NCBI GenBank assembly: GCA_002493595.1 | Contig: DKZG01000014.1 | Span: forward strand, 609-64,608 | Origin: Ruminococcaceae bacterium UBA7080 | GTDB taxonomy: Bacteria; Bacillota; Clostridia; Oscillospirales; Acutalibacteraceae | Direction: 5' to 3' | DNA: 64,000 nucleotides | Shown here: positions 5,363-53,670 of the stretch, piece by piece | Numbering within the stretch: the stretch's first letter is position 1 | Layout: every line of letters begins with the position of its first letter | Program-made: the position numbers and the translations under genes | Notes under the pieces: generated by a model | The model's input: only the letters and a program-made list of their open reading frames with translations | Databases searched by the model: none | Told to the model about the DNA's origin: nothing

Positions 5363-6925
5363 TTATCTCTTAATATCGTCCCATTTAACGCCGTTAATGT
5401 GGAAGAGATCATCAAATTTATAAACATTATGCTCTTCCTTAGTGTGGCTCGGATACCATACCTGTGCAAAGAATGGGTTAGTTTTAGCAACCTCATCATA
5501 GTTCCATTCCTTCTGAGGAATGTAGCACTCAGGACACCAGTGACCGCCAAGAAGGATAAGAGCAGGTGATGCTTCAAATTCTGCACCGCAAAGTCCGCAT
5601 TTCCACTTAAGCTTTGTAGCCATATCGCCTTTTGTCATGGTTTCACTTAAGCATTCGCCGCCACGGAATTTAGCTGCCATCTTCATGTCTTCGATATCGA
5701 GCTCAGACTCAGGCTTTGTTTCATCATAACCATGGTCAAGCTTAAACTGTTCAGCAGCACTGTTATCCTTATCAAACTTGATAATGTTGAAATCTTCCCA
5801 TTTTGTCGGAAGCTTTTCCCAATCAGCTTTTGAGCCATAGTAAGCACTCATACGAACCTTATCATCCTTAGCAGCCCAATCAAGAGTACCGAAATCAGGA
5901 GTTTGTGCAATTTTCTTCATGAATGGCTTTGCACATGCAGCAACAAGGTTCTTAGGAAGGTATCTTGGTATTTTAAAATAGAACTCAACCTGATCAGCAA
6001 GACGATTGAAATATTCCTGAACAGGGAGATTTTCACGGAAGTGAAGGAAATCTTCAAGCTTGTCACCATCAGCATAGAACTGACCATGGAAATTCTTTGT
6101 AATAAACCAATTCGGCTCGAAAAGCTTTTCAGGACCTGCAAGACCGAGTGTACCGAGAAGGAGACACTCAAATTCATAGTTAGAAATTCTGTATTCCTTA
6201 CCTGAACCGATATTAAAGAAGTGATTCCAGAAGTCAGAACCGAGATTACCTTTTTTATCTTCAAGAACAAGATTGCACATAAGTCGGCCTGAATCTTCAA
6301 CTGTACACCATTCCAGAACACCATTAATCGGTACGTGGAACATAATCGGATCCATATTCTTTAAGATGTTTGGATAAAGAATTCCGGACTGACGCATTAC
6401 AACCCAGTTTTTGATACCGCTTTCAACAAAAGTACGCTCTGCAACTGTCTTTGAAATTGCATAATGGTCATAGATAGAAATTTTAATTGGGTCACCGCAG
6501 CGTCCCCAGTGAATCGGATAGTTACGACCGCCTGTTTCAGCAACTGTACCTATGTAGCAAACCTTAACAGCATCCGGATCAGGCTGAGCAAGTACAGCCT
6601 TGCAGATACTCTGTGCAGCGCCGATATTTGTTGCCTGTGTTCTGTAAGGTTTCCAGTCAGCAGTAGGGGATACCATGCCGCCTACGTGAAGAACATAATC
6701 TGAGCCGGTTACACCCTCAAGAATTGAGTCGTAATCAGTAAGGTCACCCCAAACAATCTTTACGTTCGGCTTAGCCATAAGACCCTTTAATTTTTCTTCA
6801 TTCTTCGGACTTTTACGAGCAAGCATCTTGATGTTGATGTCGCTTGGGTGCTTGAGCATTTCCTGCACAGCAGCCCAGCCCATATTACCGGTACCGCCGG
6901 TAATAAATACGGTTTTCTTTGACAT
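5363..6925 (-). CDS. Extended SDR (NAD-dependent epimerase/dehydratase/3beta-HSD-like) with C-terminal Zn-ribbon
   Basis: Start MSKKTVF at 6925 behind AAGGAGG; TGGTGNMG Rossmann motif; YAISK (YxxxK); C-terminal RGGECLS...WKCGLCG...GHWCPEC. Confidence 0.85.
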   Translation of the reverse strand: MSKKTVFITGGTGNMGWAAVQEMLKHPSDINIKMLARKSPKNEEKLKGLMAKPNVKIVWGDLTDYDSILEGVTGSDYVLHVGGMVSPTADWKPYRTQATNIGAAQSICKAVLAQPDPDAVKVCYIGTVAETGGRNYPIHWGRCGDPIKISIYDHYAISKTVAERTFVESGIKNWVVMRQSGILYPNILKNMDPIMFHVPINGVLEWCTVEDSGRLMCNLVLEDKKGNLGSDFWNHFFNIGSGKEYRISNYEFECLLLGTLGLAGPEKLFEPNWFITKNFHGQFYADGDKLEDFLHFRENLPVQEYFNRLADQVEFYFKIPRYLPKNLVAACAKPFMKKIAQTPDFGTLDWAAKDDKVRMSAYYGSKADWEKLPTKWEDFNIIKFDKDNSAAEQFKLDHGYDETKPESELDIEDMKMAAKFRGGECLSETMTKGDMATKLKWKCGLCGAEFEASPALILLGGHWCPECYIPQKEWNYDEVAKTNPFFAQVWYPSHTKEEHNVYKFDDLFHINGVKWDDIKR

Positions 6926-7284: not shown

Positions 7285-8463
7285 ATGTCAAAGTTTTTAT
7301 TTACAAGCGAGTCTGTTACGAAAGGCCATCCTGATAAAATCTGTGACCGAATTTCAGACGCTATATTAGATGAAATGCTTGCTCAGGACCCGATGAGTCG
7401 TGTTGCGTGTGAAACCACCTGCACAACAGGTCAGGTTCTGGTTATGGGTGAAATTACAACATGTGCACAAGTTGATATTCCTGCAATTGTCCGCAAAACC
7501 ATTTGTGAAATTGGTTATGATGATGATAAAAAAGGCTTTAACGGCAATACATGTGCTGTTCTAACTGCCCTTGACAAACAGTCGAGTGATATTGCAATGG
7601 GTGTTGATAAATCTTATGAACTTAAAAATGACGAAGAGGATGAGTATAATTTAAATGGTGCAGGCGACCAGGGTATGATGTTTGGATATGCATGCAACGA
7701 AACGAAAGAGCTTATGCCGCTTCCTATCAGCCTTGCTCACAGGCTTGCTGTTAAGCTGACTGAGGTCAGAGAGAACGGAACACTCCCTTACCTCTATGCT
7801 GACGGTAAAACGCAGGTTACGGTTGAATATGAAGACGGAAAACCGGTTGCAGTTAAAACCGTTGTCGTATCAAGCCAGCATAGCGCCGATGTAGAGCTTG
7901 CACAGCTTCGTGAGGACATTATTGAAAAGGTTATTAAATCGACTATCCCTAAGGAACTTATCAGCGAAGAAACTGTGTACTATGTTAATCCTACCGGCCG
8001 ATTTGTTATTGGCGGACCTAACGGTGATTCAGGTTTGACCGGCAGAAAGATTATTGTTGATACATATGGCGGATATGCGCGTCACGGTGGTGGTGCTTTC
8101 AGCGGCAAGGATCCGACAAAAGTTGACAGAAGTGCGGCATATGCAGCACGCTGGGTTGCTAAAAACATTGTTGCTGCAGGTCTTGCAGATAAATGCGAAG
8201 TTGAGCTCGCTTATGCAATCGGTGTGGCAAAGCCTGTATCGGTTATGGTTGATACCTTTGCAACAGGGAAGATTGATGATGAAAAAATCAGTGAGATTGT
8301 TAATAAGGTATTTGATCTCAGGCCTTCTGCCATTATTGAGAGACTCGACCTCAGAAAGCCAATTTATAAGAATGTTTCTGCTTACGGGCATATGGGGCGT
8401 GAGGATCTGGATGTTTCCTGGGAAAAAGCAGATATGGTCGATGAGATAAAAAAATATATGTAA
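7285..8463 (+). CDS. metK: S-adenosylmethionine synthetase
   Basis: [48 protein letters not shown]. Start at 7285 behind AAGGAG. Confidence 0.98.
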
Positions 8464-8497: not shown

Positions 8498-9094
8498 ATG
8501 GATAATAAACCTGAAGTTCCTTTGAATTGCCTTTTTCAAGGTTGTTATAATCCTGTTTTTGAAGCTGAAATAAGCAGATGTAAGGATAAGTGTTATAAAT
8601 ATAATCAACTGAATCCAAATGACAGGGAAGCTCAGTATAAAATTCTTAAGGATTTGTTAGGTTCAATTGGTAAGGAGGTTATCATAACTCCACCCTTTTG
8701 GTGTGATTATGGGTATAATATAACAGTCGGTAATTCCTTTTATTCAAATCATAATTTGATAATTACTGATGGTGCAAAGGTGAAATTTGGAAATAATGTT
8801 TTTATAGCTCCGAATTGCTGCTTCACAACAGCTGAACATCCGATAGATCCTGAGCAGCGCAAATCCGGTCTTGAAATTGCAAATCCCATTACAGTGGGAA
8901 ATAATGTATGGATTGGTGCAGGTTCGACCATTCTTGCCGGTGTGACAATCGGCGATAATACTGTGATTGGTGCCGGAAGTGTAGTTACCAAATCAATTCC
9001 CCAAAATGTAGTTGCAGTCGGTGTGCCTTGCAAGGTTATGCGGGAAATAACTGATAGTGACAAATATCGTTATCGATTATTTAATCATAAATAG
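8498..9094 (+). CDS. maa: Maltose/galactoside O-acetyltransferase (hexapeptide repeat)
   Basis: PPFWCDYGYNI, hexapeptide repeats, NVWIGAG, VAVGVPCKV. Alternative start at 8486. Confidence 0.85.
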   Translation: MDNKPEVPLNCLFQGCYNPVFEAEISRCKDKCYKYNQLNPNDREAQYKILKDLLGSIGKEVIITPPFWCDYGYNITVGNSFYSNHNLIITDGAKVKFGNNVFIAPNCCFTTAEHPIDPEQRKSGLEIANPITVGNNVWIGAGSTILAGVTIGDNTVIGAGSVVTKSIPQNVVAVGVPCKVMREITDSDKYRYRLFNHK

Positions 9095-9102
9095 ATAATA
9101 AT

Positions 9103-9143
9103 AAATCTCCCTAAGCTTTGAAAACAAGCATTAGGGAGATTTT
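9103..9143. terminator. Bidirectional terminator between maa and proC
   Basis: AAATCTCCCTAA ... TTAGGGAGATTT inverted repeat between convergent genes. Confidence 0.8.
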
Positions 9144-9146
9144 GTT

Positions 9147-9944
9147 TTATAATCTTTTATCTTTATCAAGTGCTTTGTCAACGGCATTGTGTACAGCTTT
9201 TTCAAAACCGTCAGCTTGAAGCGACGTTACACCTTCAATTGTTGTACCGCCGGGTGAGCATACATTGTCAATCAGTTTCCACGGATGCTCGCTGCTTTCT
9301 AAAATCATTTTTGCACTGCCGTAAACAGTCTGAGCAGCAATCTTTAAAGCGTCATCTTTCTTCATTCCGTTTTTCACTCCTGCTCTTGCAAGGGCATCAA
9401 TAAACATATAAGTATATGCCGGTGCACAGCCGCCGAGAACACCGAAAAGCGGAAATGCACTTTCATCAAGACACATAACTTTTCCGATGCAGTTGAGAAG
9501 CTTTTCAATATTTTCTTTATCACATTCATTTACAAGATTATTAAAACAATAAGCGCTGATTGCTTCAGATACCTTTGCATTTATATTAGGCATAACTCTG
9601 ATTATTCTCGCATTAGTTTTAAGAGAATTACAAAGAAAATCCAGTGTTTTTCCTGCTGCAATGGAGACAAGCAACGGATGAAATATGCTAACTGCGTTCT
9701 CAATTTTTTTCAGAACAGAAGCAATCACATTTGGCTTAACTGCAAGAAAAACAATATCTGCTTTTTCAGCAATATCAATTTCGCTATTTAAAATTTCAGC
9801 GCCGTAATCATTTTTTATTATTTCGCAGGCGGGGGAGTATACGTCAAAAATAAGTATATCTTCACCTTTAACGAAATCGCTTTTTACAATGCCTTTTATA
9901 ATGGCTGTTGCCATATTGCCGCAGCCTATGAATCCTATTTTCAT
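9147..9944 (-). CDS. proC: Pyrroline-5-carboxylate reductase
   Basis: KIGFIGCGNMA, FLAVKP, SIAAG, RVMPN, VCSPGGTTIEG. Confidence 0.96.
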   Translation of the reverse strand: MKIGFIGCGNMATAIIKGIVKSDFVKGEDILIFDVYSPACEIIKNDYGAEILNSEIDIAEKADIVFLAVKPNVIASVLKKIENAVSIFHPLLVSIAAGKTLDFLCNSLKTNARIIRVMPNINAKVSEAISAYCFNNLVNECDKENIEKLLNCIGKVMCLDESAFPLFGVLGGCAPAYTYMFIDALARAGVKNGMKKDDALKIAAQTVYGSAKMILESSEHPWKLIDNVCSPGGTTIEGVTSLQADGFEKAVHNAVDKALDKDKRL

Positions 9945-9977
9945 AATGTTCTTCCTTTATGTACATGATAATAATTC

Positions 9978-10006
9978 ATTTTATCATCATATACATAAAA
10001 AATCAA
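9978..10006 (-). promoter_or_regulatory. sigmaA promoter of proC
   Basis: TTGATT-N17-TAAAAT with TG extension. Confidence 0.6.
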
Positions 10007-48833: not shown

Positions 48834-48868
48834 AAAAGAGTGACAGATATTTTAACTGTCACTCTTTT
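48834..48868. terminator. Bidirectional terminator between spoIIR and tRNA-Leu(CAA)
   Basis: AAAAGAGTGACAG ... CTGTCACTCTTTT perfect 13-bp inverted repeat. Confidence 0.85.
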
Positions 48869-48954
48869 GGTGCCGGCGGCGGGGGTCGAACCCGCACCCT
48901 GTTGCCAGGACCGGATTTTGAGTCCGGCACGTCTGCCAATTCCATCACGCCGGC
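48868..48954 (-). tRNA. tRNA-Leu (anticodon CAA)
   Basis: GCCGGCG acceptor stem, anticodon arm CCGGA-CTCAAAA-TCCGG, long variable arm, GGTTCGACCC T-loop, encoded CCA. Confidence 0.97.
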
Positions 48955-49009: not shown

Positions 49010-49096
49010 TGGTGCTGGTGACCGGACTTGAACCGGTACGGTATTGCTACCGAGGGATTTTAAGTCCCTTGCGTCTGCCTATTTCGCCACACCAGC
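49010..49096 (-). tRNA. tRNA-Leu (anticodon TAA)
   Basis: GCTGGTG acceptor stem, AGGGA-CTTAAAA-TCCCT, long variable arm, GGTTCAAGTCC, encoded CCA. Confidence 0.97.
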
Positions 49097-50961: not shown

Positions 50962-52334
50962 TGGCAAAATTAAAACCTATTTACATTTGCAGTGAGTGCG
51001 GCTATGAATCACCAAAATGGTTTGGTAAGTGCCCCGGATGCAGTCAATGGAATACAATGAATGAGCAGCTCCCTGCAGCTCTTTCCGTTACGGGCAGAAC
51101 AAATGCATCCAATAGTACCGTCAGCCAAATCATGTCGCTCAGCGAGATAGAAGAGGATGTTGAAAAGAGAATATTTACAGGAAGCGATGAGCTTGACAGA
51201 GTACTTGGCGGCGGAATTGTTATAGGCAGTTTAGTTTTATTAAGCGGTGATCCGGGTATCGGAAAATCAACAATACTATTGCAGATTTGTCAGCATTTGG
51301 GAAAAAAGCTTAAGGTTTTATATGTAAGCGGCGAGGAGTCAGCGAATCAGTTAAAAATGAGAGCAAACAGACTCAATGTAAATTGTGATAATCTTTTTGT
51401 ACTTCCGCAAACCAATGTTGCAGTTATTGTTGAAACCATTAAAAAGGAAAGTCCTGATTTAGTGATTATTGATTCTATCCAGACAATGGTATATGATGAA
51501 ATTGCATCATCAGCCGGTTCCGTAACACAGGTAAGGGAATGTACCAATATATTTATGCATACAGCAAAAGGCTTGGGAATACCAATTATTATCGTCGGCC
51601 ATGTAAATAAGGATGGAGCCATTGCAGGCCCTAAAGTGCTTGAACATATAGTTGACACCGTACTTTATTTTGAGGGTGAAAAAAATTATTCCTACAGAAT
51701 TTTAAGGGGTGTAAAAAACAGATTTGGTTCAACTAATGAGATCGGTGTGTTTGAAATGACAGGAACAGGTTTAAAAGAAGTTGCCAATCCGTCATTAATG
51801 ATGATTTCGGGAAGACCTAAAAACACTTCGGGAACCTGTGTTGCTTGTGTTATGGAAGGGACAAGACCAATGCTTGCCGAAGTGCAGGGCCTTGTTTGTG
51901 CAACCGGTTTCGGTACTCCGAGAAGAATGAGCACAGGCTTTGATTATAACAGAATGAGCATGCTGCTTGCTGTTTTGGAAAAAAGAGCCGGATACTTTTT
52001 TAGTAATATGGATGCATATATTAATGTTGTAGGTGGCTTAAGATTAGATGAACCCGCTGCTGATTTGACTGTTGCTCTTGCACTGGTATCTTCATTAAAA
52101 GACAAACCGGTAGGGGACAAGATACTTGCTTTCGGTGAAATCGGTCTCGCAGGTGAAGTCAGAGCAGTTAATAACTGTGAGCAAAGAATATCGGAAGCTT
52201 ATAGATTAGGCTTTGAAAAATGCATCATACCATTTCATAACTATAAATCACTTTCAAAAGAATTAAAAATTAATGTAGATATTATACCTGTAAAAACAGT
52301 GCGTGATGCATTCTCAGCCTTAGTTGAAGAATAA
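50961..52334 (+). CDS. radA: DNA repair protein RadA/Sms
   Basis: CSECG..CPGC Zn finger, GDPGIGKST, KNRFG, Lon-like C-terminus. Confidence 0.97.
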   Translation: MAKLKPIYICSECGYESPKWFGKCPGCSQWNTMNEQLPAALSVTGRTNASNSTVSQIMSLSEIEEDVEKRIFTGSDELDRVLGGGIVIGSLVLLSGDPGIGKSTILLQICQHLGKKLKVLYVSGEESANQLKMRANRLNVNCDNLFVLPQTNVAVIVETIKKESPDLVIIDSIQTMVYDEIASSAGSVTQVRECTNIFMHTAKGLGIPIIIVGHVNKDGAIAGPKVLEHIVDTVLYFEGEKNYSYRILRGVKNRFGSTNEIGVFEMTGTGLKEVANPSLMMISGRPKNTSGTCVACVMEGTRPMLAEVQGLVCATGFGTPRRMSTGFDYNRMSMLLAVLEKRAGYFFSNMDAYINVVGGLRLDEPAADLTVALALVSSLKDKPVGDKILAFGEIGLAGEVRAVNNCEQRISEAYRLGFEKCIIPFHNYKSLSKELKINVDIIPVKTVRDAFSALVEE

Positions 52335-52343
52335 ATAACAATA

Positions 52344-52368
52344 ACCCTCTCTAATAAATGGAGAGGGT
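52344..52368 (+). terminator. Hairpin after radA
   Basis: ACCCTCTC...GAGAGGGT inverted repeat; weak U tract. Confidence 0.55.
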
Positions 52369-52452
52369 ATAACTTTATAGTTTTTAAGTATTTGCGAAAT
52401 CAAGTATATTAAGAAGAGAATTATTTTCTAATCATTAACCTGAAAAAAAGCC

Positions 52453-52480
52453 TTGTAATCCCGCCATTTTTTGATATAAT
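52453..52480 (+). promoter_or_regulatory. sigmaA promoter upstream of the recombinase (about 210-nt leader)
   Basis: TTGTAA-N16-TATAAT with perfect TGnTATAAT. Confidence 0.65.
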
Positions 52481-52695
52481 TATACAAAATAAATATTTTG
52501 TTCAATATAGGGGAGCTGTAAACGTAAATAATTACAGTTAACATGTCATTGCAAAAGATTGTCCAATAGCTATATTCATATTTAGAGAATCGTATTTCTT
52601 TTTATTAAAGGCTTATATGATTTCTTATTTTATATGATGTGCATTCGTAACTAAAAGATAAAAAACTTATTATCAATTAAGGAGTTGTTTTTTTT

Positions 52696-53670
52696 ATGAG
52701 AAAAGAAGAATTTATATACTTACCTAAACTTGTACAGCAATATCTTGTATATATCGAAGCAATCAAGGGGCACAGCAAATTATCTGTAATTGAATACGCC
52801 TCTGATTTGAGGACCTTTTTCAGATATATGGCTAAAAACAAAGGATTATGCAGCAGCGATACACCGGATGAAAAAATTGATCTATCCCCTATTGATTTAG
52901 ATTTTATACAGAGTGTAAATCTTACAGATGCATATCAATTTTTAATTTATTGCAAAGATGTACGTAATAACAGCGAGGCTACACGTTCAAGGCGAGTGAT
53001 TGCAGTACGCCGATTTTATAATTATCTATCAGAAAATCTTGGATTAATAGATAAAAACCCTTTAAAAAATCTTGATGCACCTAAAATGAAAAAATCCTTG
53101 CCCAAATATCTAACCCTTGAAGAATCGGAGAGATTGTTATCTGTAATCGATGGCAGGCATAAAGAACGTGACTATGCAATTGTTACTCTGTTTTTAAATT
53201 GCGGTATGCGTTTGAGTGAACTTGTTGCAATAGATTATAATGATATTAAGGATGATGGTTCGATTGTAATTACCGGAAAAGGCAACAAAGAGAGAATTGT
53301 GTATCTCAACCAAGCTTGTATCGATGCTGTCATAAAGTATATAAAAGTCAGACCAAACGATGGTGTAAAAGACAGAGCTTTATTTCTCAGCTCCAGAAAT
53401 AAACGGATAAGCCCTAAAACTGTACAGCATATGGTGTATGGATATCTTGAGAAAGCAGGACTTGGAGACAGAGGTTTATCTGTTCATAAGCTCAGGCATA
53501 CAGCAGCAACTTTGATGTATCAGCATGGCAATGTTGATTTGTTGCTGCTTAAAGAAATACTCGGTCACGAAAATCTCGGAACTACAGAAATTTATACGCA
53601 CATAAATGATGAAGCAACGCGTAAAGCGATACAATCCAATCCGCTCGCAAAGGAAAAACCTAAATGGTAA
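52696..53670 (+). CDS. Chromosomal tyrosine recombinase, XerC-annotated / XerS-like clostridial type
   Basis: Catalytic R (CGMRLSEL), K (TGKGNKER), HKLRH, LGH, Y (TEIYTH). No mobile-element neighbours. Confidence 0.9.
   Translation: MRKEEFIYLPKLVQQYLVYIEAIKGHSKLSVIEYASDLRTFFRYMAKNKGLCSSDTPDEKIDLSPIDLDFIQSVNLTDAYQFLIYCKDVRNNSEATRSRRVIAVRRFYNYLSENLGLIDKNPLKNLDAPKMKKSLPKYLTLEESERLLSVIDGRHKERDYAIVTLFLNCGMRLSELVAIDYNDIKDDGSIVITGKGNKERIVYLNQACIDAVIKYIKVRPNDGVKDRALFLSSRNKRISPKTVQHMVYGYLEKAGLGDRGLSVHKLRHTAATLMYQHGNVDLLLLKEILGHENLGTTEIYTHINDEATRKAIQSNPLAKEKPKW

Follow-up and report, generated by a model that had tools for sequence, protein, structure and literature searches.

A Xer-like recombinase gene and a 30-bp palindromic site upstream of it form a candidate dif/Xer module in a lineage of Oscillospirales

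We analyzed a 64,000-nt stretch of DNA (the window) from Ruminococcaceae bacterium UBA7080 (Acutalibacteraceae, Oscillospirales; contig DKZG01000014.1, forward-strand positions 609 to 64,608), in which an open reading frame (ORF) on the plus strand (52696..53670, ATG start) encodes a 324-aa Xer-like tyrosine recombinase, here called the window Xer. This xer gene and a 30-bp site located 189 bp upstream of its ATG probably constitute a chromosomal dif/Xer module for the resolution of chromosome dimers. The first-pass annotation had proposed a xerS-like gene with a cis-acting site of its own. The site and the arrangement of the module bore this out, as the site is 30 bp long, AT-rich, palindromic and unique, coincides with a switch in strand bias and is a target of integrating elements, whereas the kinship with XerS and XerH did not hold. 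The locus would most likely be a cis module of the XerS/difSL kind in which both the recombinase clade and the site are others, the site having 30 bp with a 6-bp centre. We infer that the window Xer would be the enzyme working at this site, that it would act alone and under the control of FtsK, and where within the site it would cleave.

The radA gene ends at 52334, and the radA-xer gap spans 361 bp (52335-52695). The dif-like core site occupies 52478..52507 of this gap and is read as a 12-bp left arm (AATTATACAAAA, 52478..52489), an asymmetric 6-bp centre (TAAATA, 52490..52495) and a 12-bp right arm (TTTTGTTCAATA, 52496..52507). The centre, within or at the edge of which the hybrid sites described below diverge, is the putative region of strand exchange. 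Even with three mismatches allowed, the core site is the sole match in the 64-kb window, where 0.03 matches are expected by chance. For comparison we used the 80 best loci in species-representative genomes, comprising isolates and metagenome-assembled genomes (MAGs) labelled Eubacterium sp., Ruminococcaceae, Acutalibacteraceae or Candidatus Fimenecus, in which Xer orthologues of 58-90% identity stand in conserved synteny; E. coprostanoligenes ATCC 51222 is one of them (Xer 73% identical). The short gaps, once aligned, share a single strong motif, TAYAATTnnnCAAAATWAATATTTTGnnnAATnnAGGGGAG, and the family consensus of the core site is AATTnnnCAAAA TWAATA TTTTGnnnAATT. The site was detected in 68 of the 80 related species, with position weight matrix scores of 15-44 out of a possible 44.7, and in many of the other 12 the sequence breaks off almost directly upstream of xer. 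The site is present in a single copy in each locus and, where the locus includes radA, always lies between radA and xer.

The consensus arms are mirror images of each other, and a variable triplet within them co-varies across the arms (ATA/TAT, TCG/CGA, GCA/TGC), which fits a protein dimer binding both arms. When 14 positions were compared between the two halves, including the two central bases beside each arm, 10 were complementary in the window site and all 14 in 7 of the 51 aligned sites. The site is about 30 bp long, AT-rich, partly palindromic, single-copy and non-coding, which are the properties used to recognize dif in PMC9765430. Thus, the cis site that had been anticipated in the upstream gap was found there as a conserved palindrome linked to xer across relatives, and the statement that the locus has no att sequence needs correction, since the gap holds a recombination-type site that is occupied by mobile elements in relatives and in a conspecific strain. 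Another inverted repeat in the gap (CTGTAA-N10-TTACAG with 6-bp arms, 52518-52539) was dropped because it is not conserved in relatives.

More distant Xer proteins are also linked to such a site. It adjoins xer and is accompanied, one base outside an arm, by a GGGGAG box in L086 (Xer 54% identity; AATTACACAAAA TTTTTA TTTTATGTAATT) and in L087/88 (51% identity; ACATTCGCAAAA TCAATA TTTTACGAATGT), and in L096/97 (48% identity) the site AATGTCGCAAAA TAAATA TTTTCCGACATT and its box are located 86 bp downstream of xer. In seven of the closer relatives (L016, L030, L033, L034, L038, L058 and L064), the site and the GGGGAG box are reversed relative to xer. The E. coprostanoligenes subgroup, in which the site is inverted, has an additional conserved GAAAGGAAAA about 15 bp beyond the box. 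The locus L092 (45% identity) contains a full palindrome, GATTCCGGAAAA TCCTTT TTTCCGGAATAA, at 7796-7825, 4.7 kb downstream of xer, and an exact copy of the 12-bp arm at ~1921-1932, about 160 bp upstream of xer; this arm is similar to the difSL arm TTTCCGAAAA. A scan of IMG/VR for full sites returned one contig only, L091 (3300001544_000058), with an exact match to ACAATTCTGCAAAATATTTATTTTGTGGAATT at 2423-2451, the gene content of which does not look inovirus-like.

A conserved polar box, AGGGGAG (52509..52515, plus strand), accompanies the site, from whose right arm it is separated by a single T. Over the 51 aligned sites its seven positions contain 1.1-2.2 bits each, with 2.2 bits at the three central G's, and it remains 1-2 nt beyond one arm from 100% down to 48% protein identity. 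The box is found at ~4637 in L096, ~5587 in L087 and ~5935 in L086, and its spacing is retained in L096 despite the location of the site downstream of xer. As the box is kept in these distant relatives, it is part of a composite site and more than a ribosome-binding site of xer. It gives the palindromic site a fixed polarity and could be an accessory element, an FtsK-related element or a relic ribosome-binding site. Counting AGGGGA as a skewed motif of the FtsK-orienting polar sequence (KOPS) type was uninformative (14 on the plus and 2 on the minus strand to the left, 3 and 4 to the right), since the counts are confounded by ribosome-binding sites on the coding strand.

The site also overlaps a predicted sigma-70-like promoter that reads towards xer (TTGTAA, 16 nt, TG-n-TATAAT; 52453..52480, plus strand), which matches at 10 of 12 positions and has an extended -10 element. 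The -10 hexamer extends over the start of the left arm, and TTGACA-17-TAYAAT is conserved at the same position in many relatives. An RNA hairpin is made less likely by the predicted transcription start, which falls within the palindrome. In addition, an Rfam scan of the radA-xer gap found nothing above noise, and the conserved motif in the gap is therefore not a known RNA.

Integrated elements mark the site in other genomes. Ten related loci contain a half-site consisting of one arm and the 6-bp centre, in direct repeat with the full site and 2.3-7.8 kb away from it. Each hybrid has the arm and the centre in common with the full site, or all but the last 1-2 bases, and diverges thereafter. The left arm is kept in the hybrids of nine loci (L004, L011, L025, L026, L027, L033, L047, L074 and L079), as illustrated by L011, whose hybrid is AATTGCACAAAATAAATA|CTCTGTGTATAT and whose own full site is AATTGCACAAAATAAATATTTTGTGCAATA. 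In L033 the hybrid site faces radA. In L030, from a sister species, it is the full site that faces radA, and the hybrid beside xer (…ACGCA TATTAA TTTTGCGAAATT) keeps the right arm; the junctions were read directly in both loci. From these opposite layouts, elements therefore enter with either arm conserved and with the crossover in the centre.

The same event was found within the species of the window. Contigs from two mouse-gut sequencing runs, X6 and X7, belong to this species at 95-99% identity, with 22 base differences and three small indels in the compared stretches. They track the window to 52495, continue into ~6.2 kb of foreign DNA (…AAATA|CTGTGTGTATAC…) and rejoin the window at a duplicated 52467-52495, the left arm again being kept. 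The window, the own sequence of which is present in rat and mouse gut metagenomes, therefore represents the empty site of a locus occupied in another conspecific strain. The integrated elements carry their own -35/-10-like sequence upstream of the arm (…CCCTTGACAATAGGGCGTTTTTTTGATATAATTATAC…; X6/X7 at 52467-52495, L033 at 9900-9980); after integration a phage promoter would therefore face xer and the chromosomal promoter would face the prophage.

The gene content of the elements resembles that of filamentous phages and rolling-circle replicons. The L011 element encodes an XRE repressor, a 112-aa Gp8-like coat protein, membrane proteins of 584 and 91 aa, a rolling-circle Rep and a Zot/pI ATPase (7e-23; PHROG Zot-like 1e-24). 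Zot (4e-18) and Rep_trans (3e-34) are encoded in L033; Rep_trans, a weak Zot match and XRE in L030; Rep_OBD and XRE in L026; Rep_OBD in L047; and Rep_trans and DUF2726 in L079. No recombinase was found among the scanned ORFs of these six elements, a scan that left aside some small ORFs of L026, L033, L047 and L079, those listed in L026, L033 and L047 all being <95 aa. A search with the Xer query gave no match in the extracted insertions, a set without L074 and L079 because radA is off those loci. Elements that use the recombinase of their host are known from CTXphi-type phages, XacF1 and LME-1 (PMC5357621, PMC5666396, PMC9765430). The six recombinase-less elements at full and hybrid sites, by their sequences, bear the signature of such IMEXs, mobile elements that integrate by means of Xer, and appear to exploit the host Xer.

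The position of the locus on the chromosome was assessed by extending the window by 9 kb along its MAG contig to a stretch of 73 kb. The cumulative GC skew climbs to 52-54 kb and then drops to the end of the stretch at 72 kb. The skew at third codon positions (GC3) is +0.080 in the 39 genes on the left and -0.028 in the 22 genes on the right (Mann-Whitney p=0.005), and gene orientation changes from 33 plus and 6 minus on the left to 7 plus and 15 minus on the right of the locus (Fisher p=5e-5). Among the 28 related loci with full flanks, 24 show positive skew on the left and negative skew on the right, although synteny makes these loci non-independent. The switch in strand bias at the locus looks like a terminus within the 73 kb.

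The window Xer itself matches Pfam Phage_integrase (1.6e-36) and Phage_int_SAM_1 (2e-10), the latter match stopping after profile position 41. Its catalytic set R172, K195, H264, R267, H291 and Y300 is invariant when the protein is aligned with XerS and with the XerC and XerD of E. coli, in agreement with the complete R-K-H-R-H-Y set reported by the first-pass annotation, and both sequence strings quoted there, HKLRHTAATLMY and TEIYTHINDE, occur in the translation. The protein consists of a core-binding and a catalytic domain and has no arm-binding domain, as in the simple tyrosine recombinases of the Xer subgroup (PMC8138268). Pfam, the alignment, and an AlphaFold2 model searched with Foldseek all place it in this subgroup of the tyrosine recombinase superfamily. 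The insertion that had been noticed in the core-binding domain comprises ~17-19 residues (roughly 53-72, SSDTPDEKIDLSPIDLDFIQ) and has no counterpart in E. coli XerC or XerD. XerS has an insertion at the same position, as the first-pass annotation had proposed together with the common HKLRHT.AT motif, and the alignment agrees on both, the XerS insertion being shorter (11-13 aa). In the AlphaFold2 model (mean predicted local distance difference test score 74.5, poor at the C-terminus), the insertion is predicted to form a loop followed in the fold by no more than a short helix, both placed between two of the helices that make up the core-binding domain.

We compared the window Xer with the curated NCBIfam models. 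It scored 202.8 bits with XerC (TIGR02224; cut-off 335), 201.4 bits with XerA_Arch (NF040815; cut-off 220), 194.1 bits with XerD (TIGR02225; cut-off 330) and 141 bits with XerS (NF003462; cut-off 267), the XerS match being restricted to residues 154-314. The comparison XerS proteins were database entries verified on the XerS model, on which the control P0274 scored 560 bits. None of ten sampled relatives, down to 39% identity, reached the XerC, XerD or XerS cut-offs. BLASTP identities of the window Xer are 35% with the XerD and 31% with the XerC of E. coli, and 26% with XerS (76.6 bits). A sequence search of the PDB gave 113 bits for XerD, 109 for XerA and 68 for XerH, the weakest of the solved Xer proteins, to which the identity is 31% in the catalytic domain. 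Foldseek ranked XerA (5hxy) best, followed by XerD and XerH, in scores that are too close to discriminate on a model of moderate quality.

In a neighbour-joining tree of 203 catalytic-domain columns, for which the XerH and XerA segments were taken from PDB alignments, the window Xer family formed one clade (71% bootstrap) about equidistant from XerC/D/A, XerS and XerH. Bootstrap support for grouping the window Xer was 7.5% with XerS and 14.5% with XerH. Of five XerS-specific insertions, which lie in the core-binding domain and the linker, only one position (residues ~53-72) is common to the window Xer, the other four being absent in the alignment. Membership in XerS is thus contradicted by the score of 141 against 267 bits, confined to the C-terminal domain, by 26% identity, by the bootstrap value and by the four missing insertions; membership in XerH is contradicted by a PDB score of 68 bits, where XerD reaches 113 and XerA 109, and by its own bootstrap value. 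The phylogeny that had been suggested as a check accordingly sets the family apart from both. Because the curated models are not reached and trees show no grouping with XerS or XerH, the window Xer belongs to an Xer-like clade of its own within Oscillospirales (Eubacterium coprostanoligenes group).

The dif sites of XerCD systems have arms of the form CATAA/TTATG (..CATAA-N6-TTATG..), and the canonical site of Firmicutes is ACTTCCTAGAATATATATTATGTAAACT-like. The arms of the window-site family (..CAAAA-N6-TTTTG..) are symmetric and unlike these. Their inner ends CAAAA/TTTTG are similar to the arms of difH (AGTTATGAAAA) and difSL (TTTCCGAAAA) quoted in PMC5357621, and adjacency of recombinase gene and site is a hallmark of single-recombinase Xer systems (PMC5357621, PMC1914069). 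The closest parallel in layout is XerS/difSL of streptococci and lactococci (Le Bourgeois 2007, PMC1914069), where the site likewise lies shortly upstream of the gene as part of a single cis module, the A/T-rich arms end in ..GAAAA/TTTTC.. towards the centre, and the recombinase has the HKLRHT.AT motif as well as an insertion at the position in the core-binding domain where the window Xer has one. In contrast, XerS has 356 aa, against 324 aa in the window Xer, four of its five insertions are absent from the latter at 26% identity, and difSL has 31 bp with an 11-bp centre, against 30 bp with a 6-bp centre as suggested by the integration junctions. XerH/difH of Helicobacter and Campylobacter (PMC3325230, PMC5241119) also has a nearly palindromic site with its gene nearby, and the difH arm AGTTATGAAAA is similar to the window arm AATTATACAAAA, but XerH has 354-362 aa and matches the window Xer with 68 bits against 113 for XerD, and the bootstrap support for grouping the two is as low as 14.5%.

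Other likenesses concern the elements and the single short recombinase. XerL/dif of Legionellales was found through LME-1 (PMC9765430), and there too an integrase-less element with a mimic of the site marks a ~30-bp, AT-rich, partly palindromic site, which in Legionellales is near the terminus; XerL, which was compared by description and not by sequence, comes from another phylum and another recombinase clade. Integrase-less filamentous phages also enter the host site in XerCD/dif systems (CTXphi, VGJphi, TLCphi, XacF1; PMC5357621, PMC5666396), where attP again has one good and one degenerate arm and one functional site is regenerated. The window site differs from the canonical 28-bp dif of these hosts in its symmetric arms, its adjacent xer and its Gram-positive gut anaerobe host. 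Archaeal XerA/dif (PMC2958812; NF040815) resembles the proposed module in having a single short Xer and a palindromic dif, and XerA gave both the score closest to its own cut-off (201.4 against 220) and the best structural match (5hxy). However, the cut-off is not reached, the host here is bacterial, XerA has no insertion in the core-binding domain, and its arm sequences are different.

Several points weigh against the reading of the locus as a dif/Xer module. The arms of the window site differ at 3 of 12 positions, and no adjacent site was found in L089/90 and L094/95, relatives at 42-49% identity. The search for a further Xer covered the 64-kb window and ±10 kb of the loci, short of a whole genome, and a second Xer paralogue or a canonical 28-bp dif may exist elsewhere. 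The Rep_1 elements of L004, L025 and L027 (2.7-3 kb) encode tyrosine recombinases of 121-193 aa with a catalytic domain only (PF00589, up to 5e-19; 9117-9482, 5739-6263 and 8528-9109, respectively), possibly resolvases or integrases of the plasmid type that work at this very site; at least some integrations may therefore be catalyzed by the elements. The inference of a terminus comes from 73 kb, in which GC skew is confounded by gene orientation and the GC3 skew on the right is weakly negative. XerL has been proven genetically and biochemically, whereas the window locus is known from sequence alone. The overlap of the site with a conserved -35/-10 promoter, just upstream of the Shine-Dalgarno-like GGGGAG, belongs here as well, since a purely regulatory operator would also account for the conservation of the site, and is taken up below.

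The main rival to the module is a second, unlinked Xer partner. The site would then be a two-recombinase dif, as with XerCD or CodV/RipX, and the window gene a divergent xerD or xerC whose partner lies elsewhere. XerCD was found in most of the Firmicutes analyzed by Kono et al. (PMC3025954). XerC (202.8 bits) and XerD (194 bits) are among the best hidden Markov model matches of the window Xer, above XerS, its identity to these E. coli proteins is 31-35%, and the two arms are non-identical in the window species. In B. subtilis, ripX (xerD) also lies near spoIIM, which would suggest vertical descent from XerD. On the other hand, the equivalog cut-offs of XerC and XerD (335 and 330) are not approached, nor reached by any of the 10 sampled relatives, and no second tyrosine recombinase was found in the rest of the 64-kb window or within ±10 kb of the related loci. 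The arms of the consensus mirror each other, with 7 of 51 sites complementary at all 14 compared positions, whereas the outer arm halves of XerCD dif differ. The tight linkage of gene and site is foreign to XerCD systems (PMC1914069). Because the symmetric arms and the gene-site linkage argue against an unlinked second Xer, we favor the module with a single recombinase and consider the two-recombinase arrangement unlikely.

Alternatively, the palindrome might mainly serve the transcription of xer, as an operator or promoter element, or be an attB for the recombinases of the elements, with the Xer having another role, for example in a developmental or element-related rearrangement beside spoIIM. 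The promoter overlap, the GGGGAG that serves as the ribosome-binding site of xer in L061 and the mini tyrosine recombinases of the Rep_1 elements would suit this explanation. It leaves unexplained the precise junctions at the 6-bp centre in 10 genomes and in the conspecific strain, and six integrated elements have no recombinase among their scanned ORFs. In L096/97 the site and box are downstream of xer and in seven species they are inverted, so that they are not simply a promoter and Shine-Dalgarno sequence of xer, and tyrosine-recombinase core sites have just this layout, 12-6-12 around an asymmetric centre. We therefore regard this explanation as improbable. It is barely credible that the adjacent recombinase flips an invertible promoter switch (phase variation) of which the site is a part: the orientation of site and GGGGAG relative to xer varies (reversed in L016, L030, L033, L034, L038, L058 and L064) and the L038 segment is flanked by a 14-bp inverted repeat, but there is one site per locus with no inverted second site in the window, metagenome contigs over the region have no inversion joints, and orientation changes between species and not within one.

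If the locus is a dif/Xer module, the recombinase would bind the two 12-bp arms, which are nearly identical (AATTnnnCAAAA), two such sites carried by a chromosome dimer would synapse, and strand exchange across the asymmetric 6-bp centre (TWAATA) would resolve the dimer. Filamentous-phage-like and rolling-circle elements without a recombinase would hijack the same reaction by means of an attP consisting of one good arm, an identical centre and one degenerate arm, so that integration would regenerate a full site on one side and leave a crippled hybrid on the other. As the -10 element of the promoter overlaps the left arm, binding at the site would probably autoregulate xer as well.

The gene order at the window locus is amidase, radA and xer, followed by spoIIM, yajC, tgt and queA on the other strand, which agrees with the housekeeping context that had been described. 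The order radA-xer-spoIIM-yajC-tgt-queA-asd is kept in the relatives, with a radA-xer distance of 128 bp to 8.6 kb. The long gaps of L016, L043, L045 and L064 were considered as a mobile element and rejected, as they contain a conserved operon of about ten genes. These ~ten co-oriented genes (439, 316, 205, 232, 192, 267, ~345 aa …) stand between radA and the site and represent a rearrangement beside the site. In the window, a G+C-rich hairpin, CCCTCTC-N9-GAGAGGG (52345-52367), directly follows the radA stop codon and is likely the radA terminator; Rfam sRNA matches around the same positions were weak and judged to be noise. The minus strand carries two tRNA-Leu genes (anticodons CAA and TAA) at 48868-48954 and 49010-49096, in surroundings that are otherwise plus-strand.

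Single-recombinase Xer/dif systems have been described only a few times (XerS, XerH, XerA and XerL), and each has altered views on dimer resolution and its control by FtsK. Our literature search found these four and no gene-linked dif or single-recombinase Xer in Clostridia or Oscillospirales. We tentatively propose, as a hypothesis that we hold at somewhat less than even strength, that Oscillospirales (the E. coprostanoligenes group, Acutalibacteraceae and relatives) use an undescribed single-recombinase Xer clade distinct from XerC/D, XerS, XerH, XerA and XerL, in which xer is coupled to a symmetric 12-6-12 dif with a polar AGGGGAG accessory box, and that this site is a platform for inoviruses of Gram-positive gut bacteria and for rolling-circle IMEXs. 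If true, this would add a further independent Xer clade in abundant gut anaerobes and a further case of gene-site linkage, bearing on whether single-recombinase modules spread as units. The asymmetric centre and the GGGGAG box would offer a natural comparison for the polarity of symmetric sites. A large and poorly cultured part of Clostridia would gain a defined dif, by which termini could be placed in MAGs and genomes engineered site-specifically. The module would also account for where and how integrase-less filamentous phages lysogenize Gram-positive gut commensals.

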